From UHGV virus genome UHGV-0209512: a stretch of DNA of 59,753 nucleotides; one strand, written 5' to 3'. The notes beneath the pieces are model-generated. The model was not told the DNA's origin. It saw only the letters and a list, made by a program, of their open reading frames with translations, and made no database searches. Source of the stretch: a virus. The translations under genes and the position numbers were made by a program. Shown in pieces: positions 7 to 59,753 of this stretch (positions are counted from its first letter, which is position 1; each line of letters starts with the position of its first letter).

Positions 7-810
7 TTACAAGCCGTTCAGGGCTTCCGGTACTGGTACAGGTACGCGACCAGTCACACCATTAAATTTCTTCCAGCGTGCATACTGGGTCTTAACAGTA
101 TCTTCGTTCAGACCGTGACGACCAGCCAGGTTCAGAACATAAGAGATCGGGGCAGGCTGACCCAGCGTAGCGCTAATCTGGTCCATCAGAGCCCAGGCAC
201 GACCGCAGGAAGTTTCCGGTTGTGGACGACGAACACCGTTCTGTTCCGGCATACGATTAGCTTCTTTTTCTTTCTCGCGGAGCTCTTTAGCGCGCGCTTT
301 TTCCGCTTCTTTTTCTGCCTGTTTTGCAGCACGGATCTTGTCTTTGAAGCCTTTAATAGTAGCTTCCAGACCATCCACCAGACCCTGAGCAGAAGTTACA
401 GCACCAGACAGGTCTTCACCTTTAGACTTCTTAACGACAGCTTTCAGCTCTTTCAGAGCTTCTTTAATGGTCTTCAGGTTTGCAGATCCCTGAGTTTCTG
501 CTTCCGTGATCTGTTCAACAGTGCTTTCGTCGGTGACGGTAGCCAAAGAGTTTTTCAGAATTTCAGCAGCGTTAGCAATCGCATTAAATTTGTTTTCCGC
601 TTCAATGCGGATTTCAGCTTGTTTCTTTTCAGCGGCAGCTTTTTTCTCTGCTTCTTTTTTCTCTTTTGCTACGCGTGCAGCTTCAGCAGCAGCGGCTTTC
701 TTAGCTTCTGCATCATTCACAGTAGCTTCTTTCTTTGCAGGTTTAGCAGATTTTGCAGCGGCAGCAGCGGCAGCAGCGGCAGCGGCTTTTTTATCTTCAA
801 TGTTGCTCAT
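7..810 (-). CDS. Hypothetical protein with Ala/Lys/Glu-rich low-complexity N-terminal half and a C-terminal putative DNA-binding module
   Basis: ORF 7..819 trimmed to ATG at 808-810 preceded by GGAG; stop TAA at 7-9. Poly-Ala run encoded by a GCN repeat near 740-790. The last ~60 aa resemble the C-terminus of the 16228..16842 product. Confidence 0.55.
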   Translation of the reverse strand: MSNIEDKKAAAAAAAAAAAKSAKPAKKEATVNDAEAKKAAAAEAARVAKEKKEAEKKAAAEKKQAEIRIEAENKFNAIANAAEILKNSLATVTDESTVEQITEAETQGSANLKTIKEALKELKAVVKKSKGEDLSGAVTSAQGLVDGLEATIKGFKDKIRAAKQAEKEAEKARAKELREKEKEANRMPEQNGVRRPQPETSCGRAWALMDQISATLGQPAPISYVLNLAGRHGLNEDTVKTQYARWKKFNGVTGRVPVPVPEALNGL

Positions 811-937: not shown

Positions 938-1432
938 CTAGCTCTTTGCCCCTCTACCCGGCGTCCATGCAGCTTGCAATGCGGGTTGCTCACAAACGAC
1001 CCTGGCACCGGAAATAATACCACCCTCCCGTTCAGCATTGTATTTGACACGGGCAGGTTTCCAAAGTCCTTCATCCATTGACGGAACGTATTGCCCAATT
1101 TGAGGTGAGCAAAAGCCTTGGATATCGTATTCCACACAGAATTCGGCTTGTTCGCTGATTTGGGCGTGATCCAGGATTGTTTCTGGAAGTTGCGTAAAGT
1201 AATCAAACAAAATGCGCTCAACGATTTCCCGTTCATAAGGTGCAGCTCCTAAATTTTCTGTCAAGTTAATATAAAGCATTTGAAGATCAACATCTTCAAG
1301 ATCGTGTAAATCGTCTACTGGTGTTACCAGTGTTGACTCAGGGCAACAAATAATTCCAAGTTGGTGTAGTGTTAGCCAATTGGGATGCTTTGCCAAGAGT
1401 TCAAATTTATCTGTATCAATCAGGACGTACAT
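938..1432 (-). CDS. Hypothetical protein (164 aa)
   Basis: Intact ORF co-oriented with the replication operon; no motif recognised. Confidence 0.5.
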   Translation of the reverse strand: MYVLIDTDKFELLAKHPNWLTLHQLGIICCPESTLVTPVDDLHDLEDVDLQMLYINLTENLGAAPYEREIVERILFDYFTQLPETILDHAQISEQAEFCVEYDIQGFCSPQIGQYVPSMDEGLWKPARVKYNAEREGGIISGARVVCEQPALQAAWTPGRGAKS

Positions 1433-4444: not shown

Positions 4445-5329
4445 TTACTGCTGCCACGGCGGGACTGCTGCTTGTGCCGGATGCGGTTCAGCTTGCTGCT
4501 GCGGCTGAGCTTGCTGCTGAGGTGCTGCTACCTGGCCCGGCTGTGCTACCTGCTGCGCCCACGGCTGCTGAGCTGCTTCCGGTGCTACTGGCTGTTGTAC
4601 CGGAGCTTGCTGCACTGGCTGCTGTGGTGCTGCGTTTTGAGCAGGATTATCCCACGGCTGCGGTGCGGCATTCTGCCACGGTTGTGCTGCTGCGCCCTGC
4701 TGTGGTGCTGGTTGCTGCACAGGCTGCTGAACTGGTTGCTGTTGCTGCACCGGAGCTTGCTGCTGTACAGGTGCTTGCTGTTGTTGTGCAAACGGGTTAG
4801 CTGCTGGTTGCTGAGGTGCTGCGCCCGGGAAAGCTGGCTGCTGTGCTGGCGCACCTGCACCGAACGGGTTAGCTACTGCCGCTTGAGCACCCATTGCTGG
4901 AGCACCTGCTTCTTTTTCTGCATACTTAACCGGATCGTTGATGTTAGCATAACCGTTAGGCTCGTTGCTGTCTTCATAACCTTCCTGAGAACGAACTTTC
5001 AGACGCAGGTTCAGCGGAATGTTATGCAGTTGAGCAGGAGTATCCCAGCGAATTACGCCAACCGCGTGGGAAAGCGCGCCCAGTTGCTCGTATGCGATAC
5101 GCACAGTGTCTTCGTTGTCGTTAATAACGTTGTAACGAGCGAAAATTTTACGACCTTTAGCAAAACCGTCAATGATACTGAACGTTACCTGGATTGCCAT
5201 ACCGCCATTTTTGGTCGGTTTAAATTCAGATTCTTGAATTACTGCTTTATACCAACCTTTCGGCAATGCGCCGTAAGAAGGTGCTTGATAGCTGCTCGCG
5301 TCAAAGTGGAAATTAGTTGGCATAGTCAT
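4445..5329 (-). CDS. Putative ssDNA-binding protein (DUF669-like N-terminal domain) with ~160-aa Gln/Pro/Ala-rich tail
   Basis: Globular N-terminal ~135 aa followed by a tail of PVQQ/AQQP-type repeats; position between Sak4-like ATPase and exonuclease. Family assignment is from recall. Confidence 0.45.
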   Translation of the reverse strand: MTMPTNFHFDASSYQAPSYGALPKGWYKAVIQESEFKPTKNGGMAIQVTFSIIDGFAKGRKIFARYNVINDNEDTVRIAYEQLGALSHAVGVIRWDTPAQLHNIPLNLRLKVRSQEGYEDSNEPNGYANINDPVKYAEKEAGAPAMGAQAAVANPFGAGAPAQQPAFPGAAPQQPAANPFAQQQQAPVQQQAPVQQQQPVQQPVQQPAPQQGAAAQPWQNAAPQPWDNPAQNAAPQQPVQQAPVQQPVAPEAAQQPWAQQVAQPGQVAAPQQQAQPQQQAEPHPAQAAVPPWQQ

Positions 5330-14855: not shown

Positions 14856-15011
14856 ACCTACCTCCTAACAGCACTATACACAATACATACCGGCGCAGCC
14901 ACAATTATTCCACCTGAAGTTATGATGTGAGAGGATTGTTAATATATAACCACATGTGATGGAAAGTTTTGGGTAGGAATAGTTGGTGCTCCACAGTTTG
15001 CGCAATGTGAC

Positions 15012-15052
15012 CGAAAGTTTTGTGAGTTTTGCGAAGTTTTGCGAAGTTTTGT
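15012..15052. repeat. Tandem phased repeats (G/C)GA(A/G)GTTTTG, four copies at 9-10 bp spacing
   Basis: AGTTTT at 15016, 15025, 15035 and 15045 (a further copy at 14965); inverted copy CAAAACTCGCAAAA near 15450. Confidence 0.5.
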
Positions 15053-15242
15053 GGTGCCACTGTTGCTAAAAACTTTAATAAAAACAATAAGTTGGTGCAG
15101 TAAGTTTTTGCGTTTTACCCCAAAACGCATTTTTTACCCTAACACCCAAATCCCGACTGTTAGTAAAAAACGTATATAAATCAATAATATAGATACTAAA
15201 TGAATAGTGAATGGAATGGGTAGAAATCCAAATGATGGAAGT

Positions 15243-15257
15243 GGAATAAATTATTCC
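15243..15257. promoter_or_regulatory. Perfect 15-bp palindrome GGAATAA-A-TTATTCC (candidate operator)
   Basis: 7-bp arms around a single central base, read directly from sequence. Confidence 0.45.
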
Positions 15258-15525
15258 TACTTGATAGAATAATGGAATCGGTACTCCAGAGCGCAAAAAC
15301 CTAAAACTTTCAGTCAACAGACTAAAAACGGATAGAAACTAAAAGTTAATAAGTAATACCATAAATATATATAAAATAAGGATTTATTAGTAATGTATAT
15401 AGTACCTATTTGTATTATTTGAATGTTTTTGGGTCATTGTTAAAAAGTCCCAAAACTCGCAAAAAGTGAAAGAATACAATTCGTGACAGGATTGTTAATG
15501 GAATAAGGTGTATGGATATACAGTA

Positions 15526-15570
15526 TTATTCCAGATTCCGGAATAATTGGAATAATGGAATAAATTATTG
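15526..15570. promoter_or_regulatory. Second cluster of the GGAATAA/TTATTCC motif (inverted repeat plus near-palindrome)
   Basis: TTATTCC (15526-15532) and GGAATAA (15540-15546) around palindromic ATTCCGGAAT; then GGAATAA-A-TTATTG at 15557-15570. Confidence 0.45.
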
Positions 15571-15684
15571 AACTATTGTGATCGGAAGGTATATCAAGCT
15601 ATAATGCGCTTAATCGCGGGATATTGGAGGAGGACTTTATTGCGCGGTTAACCGGACCAGTAGGAGGACTGGCCCGGAAGTAGT

Positions 15685-16061: not shown

Positions 16062-16226
16062 TTATAGAAAATATAGATTGCCTTGTAGGTTGTATTTAAT
16101 TCTAACTTTATCGCGCCATTTTATATAAGCTACACGAGGACTATCAGCAGAGCTTGCCATTTCTTGCCCATTCCAGCAGAACCAAAGACCGCCTTCAAAA
16201 TATATCCGTGGTTTATTAAGTTTCAT
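16062..16226 (-). CDS. Candidate small protein (54 aa)
   Basis: ATG 16224-16226 preceded by GGAGG (6-nt spacer), open to TAA at 16062-16064; translation verified codon by codon; not in ORF track. Confidence 0.4.
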   Translation of the reverse strand: MKLNKPRIYFEGGLWFCWNGQEMASSADSPRVAYIKWRDKVRIKYNLQGNLYFL

Positions 16227-16227
16227 A

Positions 16228-16842
16228 TCAAGCCTCCAGTCCGTGGAACTTTCTCCAAGCGTAGAACTGAATGGCGACTGTTGTCCCGTTGTAAGAAGGC
16301 ATTGCTGCTTTCATTTCTTTCAGCTCCGGCGTGCGGCCCAGTTCAGCTAAAAGTTTGTCGCCCATTGCCCACACTTCGGCAGTTTTTCCTTTTAGAGGCT
16401 TGCGAGCGCCATTTTTGAAATCACAGCGAGCAGCTTTTGCATCTTGTTTTGGCGCGGCAGCTTTTGGCTCTTCAATTTTGATTTCAGAAACCTGCGTGAC
16501 AGCTTTTGCATGTTTCATATCTTTCTCTTCCTCCTGCTCCAGAGCTTCGAGGCAGCTTTTAACAATTTCCGGATTTACCATCGGGCGCAGTACCGAGACG
16601 CTGGCAGCTGGCGCGGCGGTCGGCGCCGGGACTTTCTGCTCCGGCTGTTGCGCTTTTTTATGGTCGCGCAGTACCTGAAGCACTTCCTTTTCGACGATGT
16701 AAAAACCGATCTCGTCCTGATGGATTAACTGCTCGTGTGCATCGCGTGCAACCTGCCCCCAGCGGGTCTTCAGAGCGCGGCGTGCATTGGTCTTCATGGT
16801 GTAGCGCATTTTATCCTGTTCGCGGTGAGTTACTTTAGACAT
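16228..16842 (-). CDS. Hypothetical protein with charged low-complexity linker and C-terminal putative DNA-binding module (204 aa)
   Basis: C-terminal VWAMGDKLLAELGRTPELKEMKAAMPSYNGTTVAIQFYAWRKFHG aligns with the C-terminus of the 7..810 product. Confidence 0.55.
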   Translation of the reverse strand: MSKVTHREQDKMRYTMKTNARRALKTRWGQVARDAHEQLIHQDEIGFYIVEKEVLQVLRDHKKAQQPEQKVPAPTAAPAASVSVLRPMVNPEIVKSCLEALEQEEEKDMKHAKAVTQVSEIKIEEPKAAAPKQDAKAARCDFKNGARKPLKGKTAEVWAMGDKLLAELGRTPELKEMKAAMPSYNGTTVAIQFYAWRKFHGLEA

Positions 16843-21605: not shown

Positions 21606-22028
21606 ATGATTAAACACGTCAAGCAACCAACTTTAAATACATGCGTTTCTGCGTGTTTGGCAATGATCCTTAATAAACCTGTTGAGAAGGTGATTGAGGA
21701 ATTTCATGATCGATATTACAACAACTGGGAAATAACAATTTCCGAATATTTAGTACAAAACAATGTTGACCACATCCGTTCTGTAGGCGGTGGGCGTGAA
21801 ACTATATACATGGGCGGTTTGTTTTTGTGTACTGTCCCAAGTCTGAATGTTCCTGGAGCACTGCATCAGGTTGTGATCGATACAACTAATCACAAGTTTA
21901 TTGTACATGACCCAATTAAAGGTTGGGAAGGTAAAAAGTTCTATGTTGGTCCGGACCAAGATCCTGAACAGCCAGGAGCATTTATCATTCATACTTGGGT
22001 TAAAGACGTTGAGATTGTACTTAATTAA
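21606..22028 (+). CDS. Putative papain-like cysteine peptidase (C39-like)
   Basis: N-terminal QPTLNTCVSACLAMIL (Gln...Cys) and later HQVVIDTTNHKFIVHDP resemble the Cys/His arrangement of C39-type peptidase domains; by eye. Confidence 0.4.
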   Translation: MIKHVKQPTLNTCVSACLAMILNKPVEKVIEEFHDRYYNNWEITISEYLVQNNVDHIRSVGGGRETIYMGGLFLCTVPSLNVPGALHQVVIDTTNHKFIVHDPIKGWEGKKFYVGPDQDPEQPGAFIIHTWVKDVEIVLN

Positions 22029-54247: not shown

Positions 54248-55167
54248 CAGAACAACTCCATTACACGATCACGGAATGTGCCGTCATGGGTAGCGTTAAT
54301 GTTTGCAGCAATCACACCATACGCCCATAAGTTGAAGGCAGCACGTGATTCATAGATTGTTGATAAACGTTCGTAAGTGAAACCGTTTTGCTCAAGGTAT
54401 TTAAGGACAGCGTCTTGTTCAATTTCAGTTAATGTTGAAACATGCTTACCAAAATGATGGCGGTCCGGTGACTTATCTGATACGCGCATTGGTCCCCACG
54501 GAGGGGTAACCACACTTCCAAACGCTGCCGCTTGAATCCAGGAGGATGAGTCGCAGCTATACCACGGATAACGCTCCATAATGGTTGTTGACGTAATACC
54601 AAACGCATGAAGTTTAATCTTAGCACGTCCGCTACCATCGCAAATATATTTGTCCCACATGCGGTCCAGCCAAGTTTTAAGCGTGTCCGTTGAACGCCCT
54701 ACCATGCCACCAATCGTGATATATTCGTAGTTCTTCATGTAATATTCAAGATAGCGGAAGTCCTCACCAAAGTGGAAGCACGGTAACGGTTTAGCACCGC
54801 GTGCTTCCATTTCAAGCTGATTACGGTATGTTTGCAGTGGATCACCAATACCATCAAGCACCGAGGCCATTACAGCACCATCTTCTACCCGCAGAATATC
54901 TTTATTGCGTTTGATGTACTCACAGTATTCAACAATATCAATGTGAGCACCTAACGAGTGCGCGGAGAATGCACCAGAGTCGAGAAACACTTTAGCCCCA
55001 TCCGCACGCATTTGATCAACATACTTCTGACGTCCAACGTAGTGGTATGATTCCAAAATATGGGGCAGATTGCGCGTGATATTTTTCTCATGCTCCGACA
55101 GTTTTTCATAACGCTGCTGTCCAGGCATATATCCGTTCGTGTAAACTGCTGCCATAAAAACGTTCAT
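54247..55167 (-). CDS. dpdA: DpdA-like DNA-guanine transglycosylase (TGT-fold) for 7-deazaguanine insertion into DNA
   Basis: 306 aa; TGT-like features by eye (LDSGAF, HAFG); linked to folE-queD-queC-queE in the same operon. Confidence 0.6.
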   Translation of the reverse strand: MNVFMAAVYTNGYMPGQQRYEKLSEHEKNITRNLPHILESYHYVGRQKYVDQMRADGAKVFLDSGAFSAHSLGAHIDIVEYCEYIKRNKDILRVEDGAVMASVLDGIGDPLQTYRNQLEMEARGAKPLPCFHFGEDFRYLEYYMKNYEYITIGGMVGRSTDTLKTWLDRMWDKYICDGSGRAKIKLHAFGITSTTIMERYPWYSCDSSSWIQAAAFGSVVTPPWGPMRVSDKSPDRHHFGKHVSTLTEIEQDAVLKYLEQNGFTYERLSTIYESRAAFNLWAYGVIAANINATHDGTFRDRVMELF

Positions 55168-55370
55168 TTTTGGAATGGCCCTCCAAACTGATCAATTAAT
55201 TCTAAAGTACGCCACGCTTCATTAAATGCTTCGTCCGCGCGATGTTTAGCGTCAATAAGCTGCTGCTTTAAAACATCTGTAGGCGCATCATTCTGTATTG
55301 CAGAACAAGCATCCCCAGTACCTGCTTTAAGCTGGTAGAATGCTGTCTCTAAGATTAGTTGTCTTGACAT
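55164..55370 (-). CDS. Hypothetical protein (68 aa)
   Basis: ORF 55164..55397 trimmed to ATG 55368-55370 after GGAGG (4-nt spacer); ATGA overlap with dpdA start. Confidence 0.4.
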   Translation of the reverse strand: MSRQLILETAFYQLKAGTGDACSAIQNDAPTDVLKQQLIDAKHRADEAFNEAWRTLELIDQFGGPFQK

Positions 55371-55390
55371 ATTTCCTCCAATGACTAAAA

Positions 55391-55422
55391 AGCCCATACC
55401 AGTATTATGACCGATATGGGCT
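55391..55422 (-). terminator. Stem-loop AGCCCATA...TATGGGCT downstream of folE (minus strand)
   Basis: 8-bp stem with 16-nt loop; on the minus strand followed by UUUUAGUC; possible partial terminator between folE and dpdA. Confidence 0.35.
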
Positions 55423-55441
55423 TGATCTGTAAAGCTATCTA

Positions 55442-56068
55442 TTATTTACAAGCTTCAAGGAACTCCCGACGCCAAGCATCACCTTTAAACGATGCAGCAC
55501 CGCGGAAAGCTTTAGTAATGGTAGAGCTTCCGCATACCTGCTTAACCCCGCGCGATTCCATGCACATATGCTTAGCATCGATGTAAACGCACACAGCTTT
55601 CGGGTCTAAATGCTCCTGGATAGCATCTGCAATCTGGTTAGTAAGACGTTCCTGAACTTGCAGTCGACGACTAAAAGCATCCACAACGCGAGACAGCTTA
55701 CTAAGCCCAACGATCTTCCCATTGGGGACATAACCCACAACAGCACGCCCGATAATAGGAGCCATGTGATGCTCACAATGACTGTATACAGGAATATCAC
55801 GGACAATGACCATTTCATCCGTACCTTCCGCACCATCTTCAAAGGTTTTAAACAATCCAGCAATATCTGCATCGTAACCGCCGAACCACGTTGCATAAGC
55901 TTTCGCTACACGCTCCGGAGTTTCCTCCAGCCCTGGGCGCAGAACTGCGCTAACTTCAATTTGGGATAGCAAAGTACGCACAGCGTTAGCAATACGGAAT
56001 TGAACACCTTCACTATTAATACTATATTTAGACATGGTTTGCAGTTTCCTTGTTGTTAATGTGGTCAT
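55442..56068 (-). CDS. folE: GTP cyclohydrolase I
   Basis: Conserved FolE motifs CEHH (SHCEHHMAP), GLSKL and QVQERLT. Confidence 0.85.
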   Translation of the reverse strand: MTTLTTRKLQTMSKYSINSEGVQFRIANAVRTLLSQIEVSAVLRPGLEETPERVAKAYATWFGGYDADIAGLFKTFEDGAEGTDEMVIVRDIPVYSHCEHHMAPIIGRAVVGYVPNGKIVGLSKLSRVVDAFSRRLQVQERLTNQIADAIQEHLDPKAVCVYIDAKHMCMESRGVKQVCGSSTITKAFRGAASFKGDAWRREFLEACK

Positions 56069-56069
56069 A

Positions 56070-56603
56070 TTACAGGCTATAGTTTACGTGGCATTTCGAA
56101 GTTTCTTCGATGGTGCATTCTACAAGTTGAACACCATGTTCGTCAAGCAGTTGCGGTCCAATTACGTTAACCATATATGCAGCCAGATTTTCAGCTGTCG
56201 GGTTGAACGGTAAAGATACCAGCGAACCTAAGAAATGAAGGTTATCTTCCTGCTCTGTCATATCATAACCTTGAGCAGCATCACGACAAGTGAGATCTTT
56301 CAACCCTTGCATTAGCGAGTCTTTTTCCCAGTGCAGGAACTTATGATCCCAGTTATCTTCCAGCCACTGACAGAGCGTAGTTTTAACCACACTAAAATCG
56401 ATAACTCTCCCAACGTCGTCCAACTTACCTTCAACGGAGAAGCCTTTCGCGCTCGGGATGTAGTTTTCGCTTTCTATACGTTTCGGTGCAACCTTAAAAT
56501 GAAACTTATAGTTGTGACCGTGAAGATGACGACACTTGCTTTCGTGTCCTACAACACGATGTCCAGCACAAATTTCATGTGAACGAATTACTGTATAGCT
56601 CAT
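56070..56603 (-). CDS. queD: 6-carboxy-5,6,7,8-tetrahydropterin synthase (QueD-like, PTPS family)
   Basis: N-terminal EICAGHR ... HGHNY fits the PTPS/QueD metal-binding pattern; 177 aa, longer than typical QueD. Confidence 0.7.
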   Translation of the reverse strand: MSYTVIRSHEICAGHRVVGHESKCRHLHGHNYKFHFKVAPKRIESENYIPSAKGFSVEGKLDDVGRVIDFSVVKTTLCQWLEDNWDHKFLHWEKDSLMQGLKDLTCRDAAQGYDMTEQEDNLHFLGSLVSLPFNPTAENLAAYMVNVIGPQLLDEHGVQLVECTIEETSKCHVNYSL

Positions 56604-57190
56604 TTTAATACCTCTTTAGACTGTTCAATTTCTAACGCACGCTGTGCTGACGCAATAATGTCTTTCAAATCTTCTACCAGATTCTTATGACCGCGTTCAC
56701 CAGGCTGCAACGCCTTTTTAATCAAATGTTGTAAAGCTGGGTTAGTTGTCTTCCAAGCTTCCAAGACATCATACACGTCCACGATGCATTTTACAACATT
56801 CCCATTTTGATCTTTACCATAAATAACTTTCTGATATTTATTCATGGGAATTTTAGACGGTTCGTATTTCGTAAAAACCGCACCATTAAATGTATTACTT
56901 ATACTTATTCCAGAAGAAGGTTGATGGTACAATCCGGAGCGAGTGTTTTCGCTAGCCTGTTTGACGTAATCTTCCGTAACGATATATCGCCAAGCTATAA
57001 TATCTTGAACTTTATAAGGGCTATTCTCATCCATAGCTGAACGCCCTTCCATAGCCCAATCCCATCCATGTAATAGATTCTTAACGTGTGTGCCGTTGCG
57101 CAAACGAACTTCAAACTTCTCATTACGAAGAAAAATAGGCATTCCTTTACCGTCGTGTTGGTGCCAAATTTTATTCAAATTATCTTTCAT
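56600..57190 (-). CDS. Uncharacterised protein embedded in the 7-deazaguanine cluster (196-209 aa)
   Basis: ORF 56600..57229 (TTG start); alternative ATG 57188-57190; no recognisable motif; lies between queD and a membrane protein gene. Confidence 0.5.
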   Translation of the reverse strand: MKDNLNKIWHQHDGKGMPIFLRNEKFEVRLRNGTHVKNLLHGWDWAMEGRSAMDENSPYKVQDIIAWRYIVTEDYVKQASENTRSGLYHQPSSGISISNTFNGAVFTKYEPSKIPMNKYQKVIYGKDQNGNVVKCIVDVYDVLEAWKTTNPALQHLIKKALQPGERGHKNLVEDLKDIIASAQRALEIEQSKEVLK

Positions 57191-57191
57191 T

Positions 57192-57671
57192 TTACGCTCT
57201 CGCTGTACGTGAATGAACTTCGTAAACAACCCAAAGGATAGCGGACGCTGTGAACTTACTTAAGCTCATTGCCACCATAGATCCTGGATTAACAATACCT
57301 ATAATACTTAAGAACACAATGGAGTCAATCGGTACAGCTACTAAAGAGCTGATAAATACTCGTTGATGAAAAGGCTTCTTGGTGACCGTGTATACTACAT
57401 AATCAGCAAACTCACTAAGCGCAAAAGACGCAACGGATGCTACTACAACCGCAGGATCTCCGAACACCCAGCTAAGGACGCAACCAACAATCATTGCAGG
57501 GATGACGCCTTTGCCAGCGTTACGCTGTGCGTAATCACGCAAGACAAAGATAATGCCTACAAAGAAAGCCATCATTGGGACTACGCCGAGTGGCGTATTA
57601 AGCATTGGAAGGTAGGAAAAACCCAGGTTTACGAATGTAATTGCAGCCAGATAAGCAACAATAAATTTCAT
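57192..57671 (-). CDS. Polytopic membrane protein; candidate queuosine-precursor transporter
   Basis: ORF 57192..57761 trimmed to ATG 57669-57671 after GGAGAA; about five hydrophobic segments; transporter assignment is inferred from the neighbourhood only. Confidence 0.35.
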   Translation of the reverse strand: MKFIVAYLAAITFVNLGFSYLPMLNTPLGVVPMMAFFVGIIFVLRDYAQRNAGKGVIPAMIVGCVLSWVFGDPAVVVASVASFALSEFADYVVYTVTKKPFHQRVFISSLVAVPIDSIVFLSIIGIVNPGSMVAMSLSKFTASAILWVVYEVHSRTARA

Positions 57672-57791
57672 ACTTTTGTTCTCCAGTTTTAACAGCGTTA
57701 TTCGCTGGTTGTTGGGTTTAAAAGCTTTAGTAGTATAGTTGGGTTCCCGCACCCTAAACAATGCGCTAGCGGTGCGGTTTTCTCGGTAAGA

Positions 57792-58514
57792 TCAAACGTG
57801 TTTGCTGTAAGCTTTATCCATAAATTCGCTGTACCCTTTAGCACGCAGTTTACACGCCGGGCATTCCCCACAACCGTAACCCCAATCATGCAGAGTACGA
57901 CGGACGCCGTTATAGCAAGTATGCGACTGCTCAATTACTGTGGTTAAGAAACCGACCTTATCCGCCAGCTCAAACGTTTCTGCTTTATTTAAACGCATAA
58001 GCGGAGTGACAAAATGGATATCTGTTTCATATCCAACGTTTAACGTAGCTTCAAGCAGATCTACAAACTGCTGACGACAATCAGGATAACCGCTATAGTC
58101 CGTTTCACAAACGCCCGTAACCACATATCGGGCTCCAACCTTCTGCGCGTAAGCGTGCGCGGTAGTCAGGAAAAGGGCATTACGGTTTGGCACAAAGCTT
58201 GCCGGAAGGTTGTTGTGCTGTTCGTGATGTTCGTTAACATCACCTTCGTTCCCTATTAAAGCGCTATTACCAATCTGTTTCAAAGCAGGTAATTCGAAGA
58301 CAACAAACGGAACATCGTGCTCTTTACAAATTTGATTTGCACAAGCCAGCTCAATGTTATGACGTTGACCGTATGCAAAACCAATAGCGTAGACTTTATC
58401 GTAGTTATTCAGTGCAAGACCTAGACAAGTCACGCTGTCCTGGCCGCCAGACAGGACGACAACGGCGGAGTTATGATTTTTTACAGGGAATACCAGTTTA
58501 TCTAATTTATTCAT
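57792..58514 (-). CDS. queC: 7-cyano-7-deazaguanine synthase
   Basis: PP-loop SGGQDS near N-terminus and C-terminal Cys cluster CYNG ... CGECPAC; 240 aa, no fused amidotransferase domain. Confidence 0.85.
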   Translation of the reverse strand: MNKLDKLVFPVKNHNSAVVVLSGGQDSVTCLGLALNNYDKVYAIGFAYGQRHNIELACANQICKEHDVPFVVFELPALKQIGNSALIGNEGDVNEHHEQHNNLPASFVPNRNALFLTTAHAYAQKVGARYVVTGVCETDYSGYPDCRQQFVDLLEATLNVGYETDIHFVTPLMRLNKAETFELADKVGFLTTVIEQSHTCYNGVRRTLHDWGYGCGECPACKLRAKGYSEFMDKAYSKHV

Positions 58515-58778
58515 TTACTTCACCTCTTCATAAGTAATTTTAAAGATATCAGGTTTGCAAGGATAAATCTCACCTTTCACACCCTGAACAATATAATCAC
58601 CAACATTAGCAAGATGATCACCTTCTAGTGTTTTGATAGTAAAGCTACCATCTTTATTTTCAATAGCTGTGCCATTTAAACAAGCTTTACTAAACCATGT
58701 AGGCGTTGAACCAATTTCCATTGTTGTAGTTAGCAGGAATGCTTCAACTTCTACAGGCTTCTTTCTAAATTTAGCCAT
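58515..58778 (-). CDS. Hypothetical protein (87 aa) between queC and queE
   Basis: Intact ORF; no motif. Confidence 0.45.
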   Translation of the reverse strand: MAKFRKKPVEVEAFLLTTTMEIGSTPTWFSKACLNGTAIENKDGSFTIKTLEGDHLANVGDYIVQGVKGEIYPCKPDIFKITYEEVK

Positions 58779-58983
58779 TTACTTCACCTTTAATATCACA
58801 AGGGTTGATTGTTACGTTAGACATTACGATTGGATGATTGCGCGCTCCAATTGTACTAACGTGATTAATATCCAATTCTACATGCACGCCTTGCATAGTA
58901 GCGTGAGCAATTGAAGAATTAAGTTTTTCTACCAGCTCAGTGATCATTTCCTGATGCTGTTTTGCTTCTTCCAAAGTAATCAT
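58771..58983 (-). CDS. Hypothetical protein (70 aa) between queC and queE
   Basis: Intact ORF; no motif. Confidence 0.45.
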   Translation of the reverse strand: MITLEEAKQHQEMITELVEKLNSSIAHATMQGVHVELDINHVSTIGARNHPIVMSNVTINPCDIKGEVNG

Positions 58984-59690
58984 TATTCCACCCCGATATA
59001 TTTGTGGACCTGAAGCTGCAACGTGTACCCGTGTTTCATACAGCTTTGGACAACCGCTTGGATGTTACTGTGGTTAAGGTCTTCATCCTGCTCGTCCATT
59101 GGCTGTAAATATATCTTACCCTTGAACCCCTTCGGAGGTCTAGCGATAAATGGCGTAGCCTGATGATCTAATGCTTGAAGAGGTAAACCATCTTCCACGT
59201 TTACACAGCACGCTTTAAGCACATATTTAAATGCATTAGCGCGGTACAGCACAGAAGGATGAATTTTTGTAGTCTTGGGGCTACATACAATTACTGGTAT
59301 CTGGGAAAAGTTCTTAGGTAAAGGCATAGACCCATTCGTTTCAATCTGTACAAGATACCCGCGCGATAACAGTTGTTCGACAAACGGGTTAATTTGCTGG
59401 CGGAATGGTTCGCCCCCAGTAATAACCACAAGTGAGGTGCTATTACCTGACTCCAGTTTACGGCTTTCAATCAATCGCATAATATCCACAATGTGATAAA
59501 GAGAACGACCAACAGTATAATCGGTATCACAGCCAGGACATTGCAGATTACACCCAGCAAGACGCACAAATACAGCAGGTTGGCCGCAGAATGGACCTTC
59601 ACCCTGAATGGTAGAGAATACCGAATGCACGTCTAAATACATATCGTTTTCTTTAGAACGGGACTCGGGAGCTTGTTGATTAATATTCAT
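58983..59690 (-). CDS. queE: 7-carboxy-7-deazaguanine synthase (radical SAM)
   Basis: QGEGPFCGQP and radical-SAM CNLQCPGC (C-x3-C-x2-C); AGGA RBS 7 nt before ATG. Confidence 0.8.
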   Translation of the reverse strand: MNINQQAPESRSKENDMYLDVHSVFSTIQGEGPFCGQPAVFVRLAGCNLQCPGCDTDYTVGRSLYHIVDIMRLIESRKLESGNSTSLVVITGGEPFRQQINPFVEQLLSRGYLVQIETNGSMPLPKNFSQIPVIVCSPKTTKIHPSVLYRANAFKYVLKACCVNVEDGLPLQALDHQATPFIARPPKGFKGKIYLQPMDEQDEDLNHSNIQAVVQSCMKHGYTLQLQVHKYIGVE

Positions 59691-59712
59691 CTTAAATCCT
59701 CTAGTGAAAAAG

Positions 59713-59734
59713 AAAGCGCCTCATTGGGCGCTTT
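59713..59734 (-). terminator. Stem-loop AAAGCGCC-TCATTG-GGCGCTTT at the window edge (minus-strand terminator-like)
   Basis: 8-bp stem; on the minus strand followed by CUUUUUC, 22 nt upstream of queE ATG; a TATAAT-like hexamer (complement of 59736-59741) lies just beyond. Confidence 0.35.
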
Positions 59735-59753
59735 CATTATAACGTGATATGTT

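Follow-up and report, generated by a model that had tools for sequence, protein, structure and literature searches.

Two genes of one phage genome raise the question of why a phage should encode the same small C-terminal domain twice, behind different N-terminal parts, and what one of the two copies does immediately upstream of a set of DNA-modification genes. The genome is UHGV-0209512, called the window below and meaning the whole stretch of DNA analyzed (59,753 nucleotides). Gene A (7..810) and gene B (16228..16842) both lie on its minus strand, which the initial annotation had not stated. That annotation had read the products as a pair of DNA-binding-like paralogues, possibly DNA-organizing or engaged in host takeover, with a common C-terminal module behind long charged linkers. 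As judged by sequence comparison, A and B are paralogous via this module, and the gene A orthologue is a fixed part of the block that carries the preQ0/DpdA genes in Queuovirinae-like siphoviruses.

The window was ~92–98% identical, in the region tested, to Escherichia phages phiG7, CSP1, SeppeHuegi (Bas24), and CAjan, all members of the genus Seuratvirus in the subfamily Queuovirinae. Minus-strand sequence leaving position 1 resumes at 59753 exactly as it continues in SeppeHuegi, so the window represents the complete genome, with a starting point that differs from that of the GenBank records by circular permutation. Phages of the Seuratvirus/Queuovirinae type have guanine partly replaced by 7-deazaguanine derivatives (PMC6884629). 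The SeppeHuegi orthologues of gene A (bas24_0048; phrog_11298) and gene B (bas24_0071; phrog_22313) are both annotated as 'hypothetical protein'. A and B also both matched phrog_18634 and phrog_21588, and the PHROG families are listed as being of unknown function.

A C-terminal module shared by two paralogues

The two C-termini align as first reported. The peptides quoted in the initial annotation are present in the products, and the pairwise alignment that it had recommended was significant by BLASTP (30% identity over 69 residues, E = 2e-6). Comparison of the A-family profile with the B-family profile in hhalign gave a probability of 98.5% and E = 1.7e-15 over 65 columns. We also searched each C-terminus with phmmer against all stop-to-stop open reading frames (ORFs) of at least 30 aa in the six frames of the window. 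The sole match of each was the other protein (E = 1.1e-05), the next match had E > 0.1, and no third copy of the module was found, so the window holds exactly two. A homologue search with the 85-aa module alone returned 1 match and full-length queries were used instead, which among the matches listed yielded 120 relatives for A and 37 for B. The module was present in all 158 relatives first retrieved (P0001 included), and in alignment the A module conserves the pattern N-G-x-R-x-P ... W ... N..T..Y.RW(R/K)KF.G.

Structure prediction placed the module in an ordinary fold class. AlphaFold2, run with a 100-sequence alignment, modeled residues 181–267 of A as a two-stranded hairpin followed by three helices (model m06903f4eeabc; mean predicted local distance difference test score, pLDDT, 82.5; predicted template modeling score, pTM, 0.70), and the B model had a matching topology over residues 142–199 (pLDDT ~90). 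Both models retrieved the same set of structural matches. These comprised the DNA-binding domains of HxlR, BrxR/CapW, ArsR, MecI, Fur, and Z-alpha, the protein-binding RPA32 winged helix (RPA32C), MCM C-terminal winged helix, cullin WHB, and SWIRM, and RecX repeats. Foldseek against the PDB gave no match with E < 0.8, and the best hit of a profile search of PDB sequences, ribosomal protein S20 (E = 0.17), was judged spurious. In the models the module is a three-helix bundle with helices 2 and 3 arranged as a helix-turn-helix (HTH), and it superposes on known winged-helix members. No wing hairpin follows the recognition helix in either the A or the B model, where the chain is extended after helix 3. 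The sole hairpin is N-terminal to helix 1 (residues 9–14 of the A model and 142–147 of the B model). Both modules, of ~65 residues each, are basic, with net charges of +4 and +5 and the isoelectric points (pI) given in Table 1.

Pfam searches, whether run on single sequences or on sets of 36 and 139 family members, found no model for the module and returned only low-complexity matches to CAF1A_acidic and Borrelia_P83 and a weak one to HNH_repeat (PF18780). PF18780 reached 15.9 bits against B (E = 0.016 for the whole protein and 0.0024 for the C-terminus alone), below its 26-bit cut-off, and did not match A. Only 2 of the 139 family representatives matched PF18780, and a distant relative, P0289, scored 27.1 bits against the gathering cut-off of 26. 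No HNH or homing endonuclease nuclease domain was found in A or B by Pfam. Like the module, PF18780 is a small helical repeat of similar length and pattern (helix...LG+xP...helix...aromatic-x-x-W/F...G), and relatives of the module also come as tandem repeats. The weak alignments span profile positions 12–49 and leave the N-terminal NGxRxP hairpin uncovered, which sets the two apart. The models and these matches point to a winged-helix-like domain with an unusual N-terminal hairpin, a distant cousin of the homing-endonuclease-associated repeat that has so far not been described as a family.

Homologues of A and B are already in databases as 'hypothetical' or under mistaken names. The GenBank label 'transcriptional activator FtrA' was rejected, as no AraC/FtrA or other regulator domain was found by Pfam even at E up to 10, and the labels 'outer capsid protein', 'chromosome segregation ATPase', and 'colicin-uptake membrane protein' had no profile support. 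Such names most likely stem from the Ala/Lys/Glu-rich region. KfrA-type plasmid proteins combine an HTH DNA-binding domain with a long Ala-rich alpha-helical tail. A likewise has one small HTH-like domain on a long Ala/Lys/Glu-rich helical region, and by this analogy its architecture suggests an elongated, possibly oligomeric DNA-bound protein. Membership of the KfrA family itself was rejected, with no KfrA_N match in Pfam (E up to 10) and the domain order reversed: the module is C-terminal in A, which is moreover a protein of a lytic phage and not associated with plasmid partition.

Linkage of gene A to the 7-deazaguanine cassette

The strongest contextual signal, overlooked in the initial annotation, is how tightly gene A is linked to the 7-deazaguanine cassette. 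Gene A is flanked by a superfamily 2 (SF2) helicase gene and ORF 938..1432 on one side and by queE on the other. Among 80 IMG/VR loci retrieved with the module profile, queE lay directly downstream of the A-like gene in 77, and 2 of the 3 exceptions were loci that end right after the A-like gene. The usual order was helicase, (x), A-like gene, queE, queC, queD, folE, dpdA, clamp, polymerase. At six of nine loci from bacterial genome collections, which represent phage contigs inside metagenome-assembled genomes, queE was again directly downstream. The block also occurred in GenBank phages that differ in taxon and host, namely PaMx25, RHEph04, Bhz54, ART (95 kb, Achromobacter), VspDsh_1 (Vibrio), and Erebus (Aminobacter), and in a seventh, a Synechococcus phage, a module gene lies beside polymerase, clamp, and dpdA genes.

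Across 50,697 phage records the module was found in 152 and full-length DpdA in 155, the comparison being one of counts rather than of accessions. The two counts were equal in six host genera: Escherichia (41), Pseudomonas (32), Vibrio (23), Enterobacteria (8), Providencia (4), and Salmonella (3). Full-length homologues of the neighboring helicase were present in 404 phage records. Pseudomonas phage 73 and Sphingomonas phage Lucius have the same order of replication genes without the cassette, so that the helicase gene is followed by one small gene and then the clamp gene, and no module was found in six frames of either. Bhz54, with the same order, has the cassette together with three consecutive module genes (E = 3e-24, 6e-10, and 7e-4). 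Together with the counts, this comparison indicates that module genes travel with the deazaguanine block and not with the surrounding replication genes.

Architecture, family, and genomic setting of the two genes

The coordinates of A, B, their parts, and the features around them are given in Table 1. The long charged linkers described at first were borne out for residues 1–70 of A (40% Ala, Lys/Glu-rich), for residues 161–186 of A (also Ala/Lys/Glu-rich), and for residues 66–140 of B. They do not extend to residues 71–160 of A, which are 14% Ala, have a pI of 5.5, and can be aligned with homologues, nor to residues 8–65 of B, where a small globular domain with an invariant NARRALK motif had been overlooked. 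The B linker has insertions and deletions among close orthologues, with protein lengths of 179–214 aa. The G-R-(V/I)-x-x-P part of the tail that follows the A module is kept in A orthologues, and in relatives with tandem repeats each repeat is followed by it. Starting from a GTG, gene A would extend to 819, and the ATG at 810 is the likelier start because a GGAG lies 8 nt upstream of it. At the DNA level the poly-Ala run of A (residues 9–19; minus-strand codons, 755–786) is a perfect GCAGCGGCA tandem repeat (755–783) in 3.2 copies, a likely site of length variation by replication slippage.

Table 1 Features of the window discussed in the text; domain boundaries and secondary structure are predicted.
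Feature	Position	Strand	Description
Gene A	7..810	-	267 aa (stop codon included); Ala/Lys/Glu-rich N-terminal part, center not Ala-rich, C-terminal module
A, short tail after module	10..42	-	TGRVPVPVPEALNGL region
A, C-terminal module	43..252	-	Residues 187–256; beta-hairpin (EQ-NG-VR), then three helices; pI 9.85
A, N-terminal two thirds	253..810	-	Length and sequence vary among orthologues
Upstream neighbor of A	938..1432	-	164 aa; phrog_7864, unknown function; no module in the window
Gene B	16228..16842	-	204 aa (stop codon included)
B, C-terminal module	16231..16422	-	Residues 141–204; A-like beta-hairpin and three-helix topology; pLDDT ~90; pI 9.67
B, linker	16423..16647	-	Residues 66–140; Pro/Ala/Glu/Lys-rich; pLDDT mostly <50, disordered
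B, N-terminal globular domain	16648..16821	-	Residues 8–65; beta-alpha-alpha-beta-beta-alpha; pLDDT ~90; no family assigned
7-deazaguanine cassette	54247..59690	-	Immediately downstream of A
dpdA	54247..55167	-	Cassette
folE	55442..56068	-	Cassette
queD	56070..56603	-	Cassette
yhhQ-like transporter gene	Between queC and queD in listing	-	Cassette
queC	57792..58514	-	Cassette
queE	58983..59690	-	Cassette
Intrinsic-terminator-like hairpin	59707..59735	-	GAAAGCGCC-CAATGA-GGCGCTTTC, then T run; GC-rich

The module belongs to a large family that is repeatedly shuffled onto different partners. A HMMER search of 1.84 billion representatives, in clusters defined at 50% identity, found 2,297 clusters at E ≤ 0.001 and 1,279 at E ≤ 1e-10. 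Besides the Ala/Lys/Glu-rich regions of A and the B-type N-terminal domain, the module occurs in tandem arrays of two to three copies (P0159, P0160, P0161, and P0174) and, in PaMx25 gp45, fused to an N-terminal motif that we read as SAP-like. Its mobility among many partners, several of which act on DNA, argues for a module of the binding or targeting kind. We found no paper in the literature that describes gene A or the module.

Other members of the family show further arrangements. P0289 (665 aa, metagenomic) has, by eye, a MuF-like N-terminus (ending ...NCKCTMEY), two modules with proline runs between them, and an HExxH motif in its C-terminal region. It resembles, again by eye, the 'polyvalent' proteins, which phages package in their heads and inject into the host. 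The IMG/VR contexts of P0174, P0161, and P0289 yielded nothing useful. Two chromosomal proteins of Brevundimonas diminuta (L095 9539–10249 and L097 9539–10189) join an A-type module to an N-terminal domain that looks nuclease-like by eye, a weak indication that Pfam and a PDB sequence search did not confirm. Their genes adjoin a ParB_N + N6_N4 DNA methyltransferase gene among recombinase and transposase genes, and the fusion and the methyltransferase may form a restriction-modification-like pair on a mobile element. A 71-kb IMG/VR contig from a different, larger phage (L076) encodes a module protein at 429–866 and a more divergent copy at 2029–2694, near the contig end.

The upstream neighbor of gene A has relatives that do carry the module. 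PaMx25 gp43 (L003 2978–3649) and Bhz54_34 (L104 28234–28914), both homologues of ORF 938..1432, have a divergent copy at the C-terminus. In P0091 a neighbor-like N-terminal domain and an A-like protein stand in one frame (BLASTP, E = 7e-8). P0217, P0218, and P0255 are neighbor-like by a shared N-terminal motif, the BLASTP match of P0218 not being significant (E = 0.09), and in these three the apparent fusion could come from read-through across a short spacer with a ribosome-binding site in it.

The intrinsic-terminator-like hairpin separates the end of A (stop codon at 7..9, on the other side of the window junction) from the start of queE (59690) and is ~15 nt before the queE ribosome-binding site. 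A TATAAT sequence stands just upstream of the hairpin. Terminators are annotated at the equivalent place in PaMx25 and Bhz54, and a strict scan of 79 related loci found such hairpins, with differing stem sequences, in 25 of them, where 1.8 were expected. A terminator before queE suggests that A ends a transcription unit and would be made in excess over the downstream enzymes. Gene B is the third annotated gene of a leftward transcription unit that starts at a divergent region at ~17.6–17.9 kb, and which we take to be early. In CAjan an HNH homing-endonuclease gene (L002 3501–3983) is inserted right behind the B orthologue, with a 14-nt overlap at the 3' end of the latter. The corresponding position in the window (16062–16226) has just a 54-codon ORF and no homing-endonuclease gene.

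Two further regions of the window are of note. Positions 14870–15680 are an AT-rich non-coding stretch of ~800 bp with dense short repeats, corresponding to an annotation gap of ~525 bp in SeppeHuegi, and lie at the cumulative GC skew minimum. TGGAATAAW occurs nine times in the window against 1.7 expected, and five of the nine are in this stretch, some as palindromes. AAGTTTTGYG forms five tandem or near-tandem copies at 14964–15053, with inverted partial copies at ~15292–15312 and ~15448–15466. The stretch is a candidate replication origin or major regulatory region. The ORF at 4445–5329 on the minus strand encodes 294 aa, with an N-terminal half of ~140 residues followed by a Gln/Pro/Ala-rich tail of ~150 residues that is encoded by GCTGCTG-type repeats (4476–4830). 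It lies upstream of the exonuclease gene, like the Bhz54 gene annotated as a single-stranded DNA-binding protein (SSB; DUF669), and is therefore probably the phage's own SSB.

Proposed role of A and B and alternatives

We propose that A and B are non-enzymatic paralogues that bind nucleic acid, probably double-stranded DNA, through a module carried on long spacers, and that A acts stoichiometrically on phage DNA; to us the case for this proposal is evenly poised. In such proteins the third helix (N..T..Y.RWRKF) would serve as recognition helix and the N-G-x-R-x-P hairpin as a wing or arm. As spacer, A would use its Ala/Lys/Glu-rich helical region and B its disordered linker, at the other end of which sits a further small globular domain. 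A would close a transcription unit that ends just before queE, be made in larger amounts than the enzymes, and have an architectural or coating function on phage DNA as it replicates; B would be a variant encoded near the start of the leftward, presumably early, unit. The excess of A suggested by the terminator is more in line with a protein that binds DNA stoichiometrically than with a low-copy regulator. The interpretation in the initial annotation is supported in part: the paralogy is shown, the DNA-organizing role that it offered would be compatible with the terminator directly after gene A, a hint of high expression, and nothing supports host takeover.

Several observations weigh against this proposal. 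The hairpin of the module precedes helix 1, whereas canonical winged helices have it after helix 3, and the Ala/Lys/Glu region of A is near charge-neutral, unlike histone H1. The weaker module matches are less secure (Bhz54_35 at E = 7e-4, PaMx25 gp43 by eye). The synteny around gene A could stem from common descent of a single block, with no shared function behind it. The module locus of contig L076 has no que genes within 10 kb downstream, so the wider family is not strictly tied to queE.

Two other roles were tried and rejected. The window has a separate candidate SSB at 4445..5329, and the SSB-like trigger described in the literature comes from an unrelated phage, which led us to discard an SSB role for A or B. 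A scaffold or virion role was discarded for A. Its gene is found in the interval from the helicase gene to queE and is read from the other strand than the structural genes. The A orthologue of Vid5 does not appear among the virion proteins named in the account of that phage's proteomics (PMC6266253).

The linkage to the cassette admits a second reading, which we hold to be attractive but unlikely: A and its paralogues (the neighbor's relatives and B) may be accessory factors of 7-deazaguanine modification, DNA-binding partners that aid or direct DpdA or that organize or read preQ0-DNA. There is a bacterial precedent, as bacterial DpdA requires the ParB-like ATPase DpdB to insert preQ0 into DNA (PMC10164549). 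A would then be the non-ATPase counterpart of DpdB in the Queuovirinae-like DpdA lineage, and a ParB-like gene would possibly take the same place in mycobacteriophages. Consistent with this, a ParB-like gene adjoins dpdA in two mycobacteriophages among the matches listed, and none is annotated in positions 22000–60068 of the SeppeHuegi record. The position of gene A immediately upstream of queE, the matching counts of module and full-length DpdA per host genus, and the joint gain or loss of module genes and cassette between Bhz54 on the one hand and phage 73 and Lucius on the other all suit such a factor. DpdB resembles A in being a non-transglycosylase that is proposed to act on DNA and is encoded with dpdA; the two have no similarity in sequence or fold, and A has no NTPase domain. 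Moreover, DpdA of phage 9g together with Gat-QueC modified up to ~18% of plasmid G in E. coli without other phage genes (PMC6884629). An A-like protein is thus not required, and any role of A in modification would be accessory. The terminator that separates A from queE, the location of gene B 15 kb away, and the que-less L076 locus also speak against it.

It is quite improbable that A and B regulate transcription in a sequence-specific manner, for instance that of the que operon or of the middle and late genes. In favor of such a role are the HTH-like predicted fold, the place of B within a unit starting at a divergent region, and the position of gene A, since local regulators are commonly encoded by an HTH gene just before the biosynthetic operon. 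The Vid5, Iggy, and CAjan records carry activator-type labels, but neither 'FtrA' nor 'activator' has Pfam support. A dedicated regulator would not usually come as up to three consecutive module genes or have relatives with tandem repeats, the ~15 nt from the terminator T run to the queE ribosome-binding site leave little room for a regulated promoter, and direct-repeat, tandem-repeat, and genome-wide scans found no repeated DNA motif near gene A or queE.

The protein-binding domains among the structural matches raise a further possibility, to which we give little credence, namely that the module is a protein-protein winged helix of the RPA32C, MCM C-terminal, or cullin WHB type that recruits a replication or repair factor from the host or the phage, the N-terminal parts then serving for spacing or oligomerization. 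Gene A does lie inside a replication and recombination block of exonuclease, helicase, clamp, and polymerase genes, and some relatives are fused to the neighbor's N-terminal domain. Compared with the RPA32 C-terminal domain, the MCM C-terminal winged helix, cullin WHB, and SWIRM, however, the module is more basic than expected of a pure protein binder, and it is so in both paralogues. Its sequence link to a homing-endonuclease-associated repeat, and the relatives in which it is joined to a putative nuclease-like domain and encoded next to a DNA methyltransferase gene, likewise favor DNA. Very improbable is a role of one protein, most likely B, as an origin- or iteron-binding replication initiator acting on ~14,870–15,680, just downstream of B's gene group: five TGGAATAAW and five AAGTTTTGYG copies at a GC-skew minimum, and tandem-repeat module relatives suited to repeated DNA sites, would fit it, but the argument is purely positional, the minimum coincides with the switch in gene orientation, and AAGTTTTGYG is not enriched window-wide (17 copies against 13.8 expected).

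What is new lies less in the fold class than in the outline of a large family that Pfam does not model and that PHROGs lists as of unknown function, in its N-terminal hairpin variant of the predicted winged helix and its repeated shuffling onto different N-terminal parts, and in a tight link between the module and the phage 7-deazaguanine cassette that is unmentioned in the literature we found. Phages with 7-deazaguanines in their DNA are studied for their route around restriction enzymes and CRISPR. To our knowledge, the gene sets described for the cassette so far consist of enzymes, a transporter, and DpdA. Here the cassette is accompanied by a non-enzymatic gene, whose product is a probable DNA-binding protein, no less faithfully than by the enzyme genes, with three such genes in a row in some phages. 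Describing the family, with at least 2,297 clusters, would annotate hundreds of genes now called 'hypothetical' or mislabeled as 'FtrA activator', 'outer capsid protein', or 'TolA-like'. If A acts on modified DNA or helps DpdA, it would be a missing component of the modification system and would provide a handle on how modification is coupled to replication.

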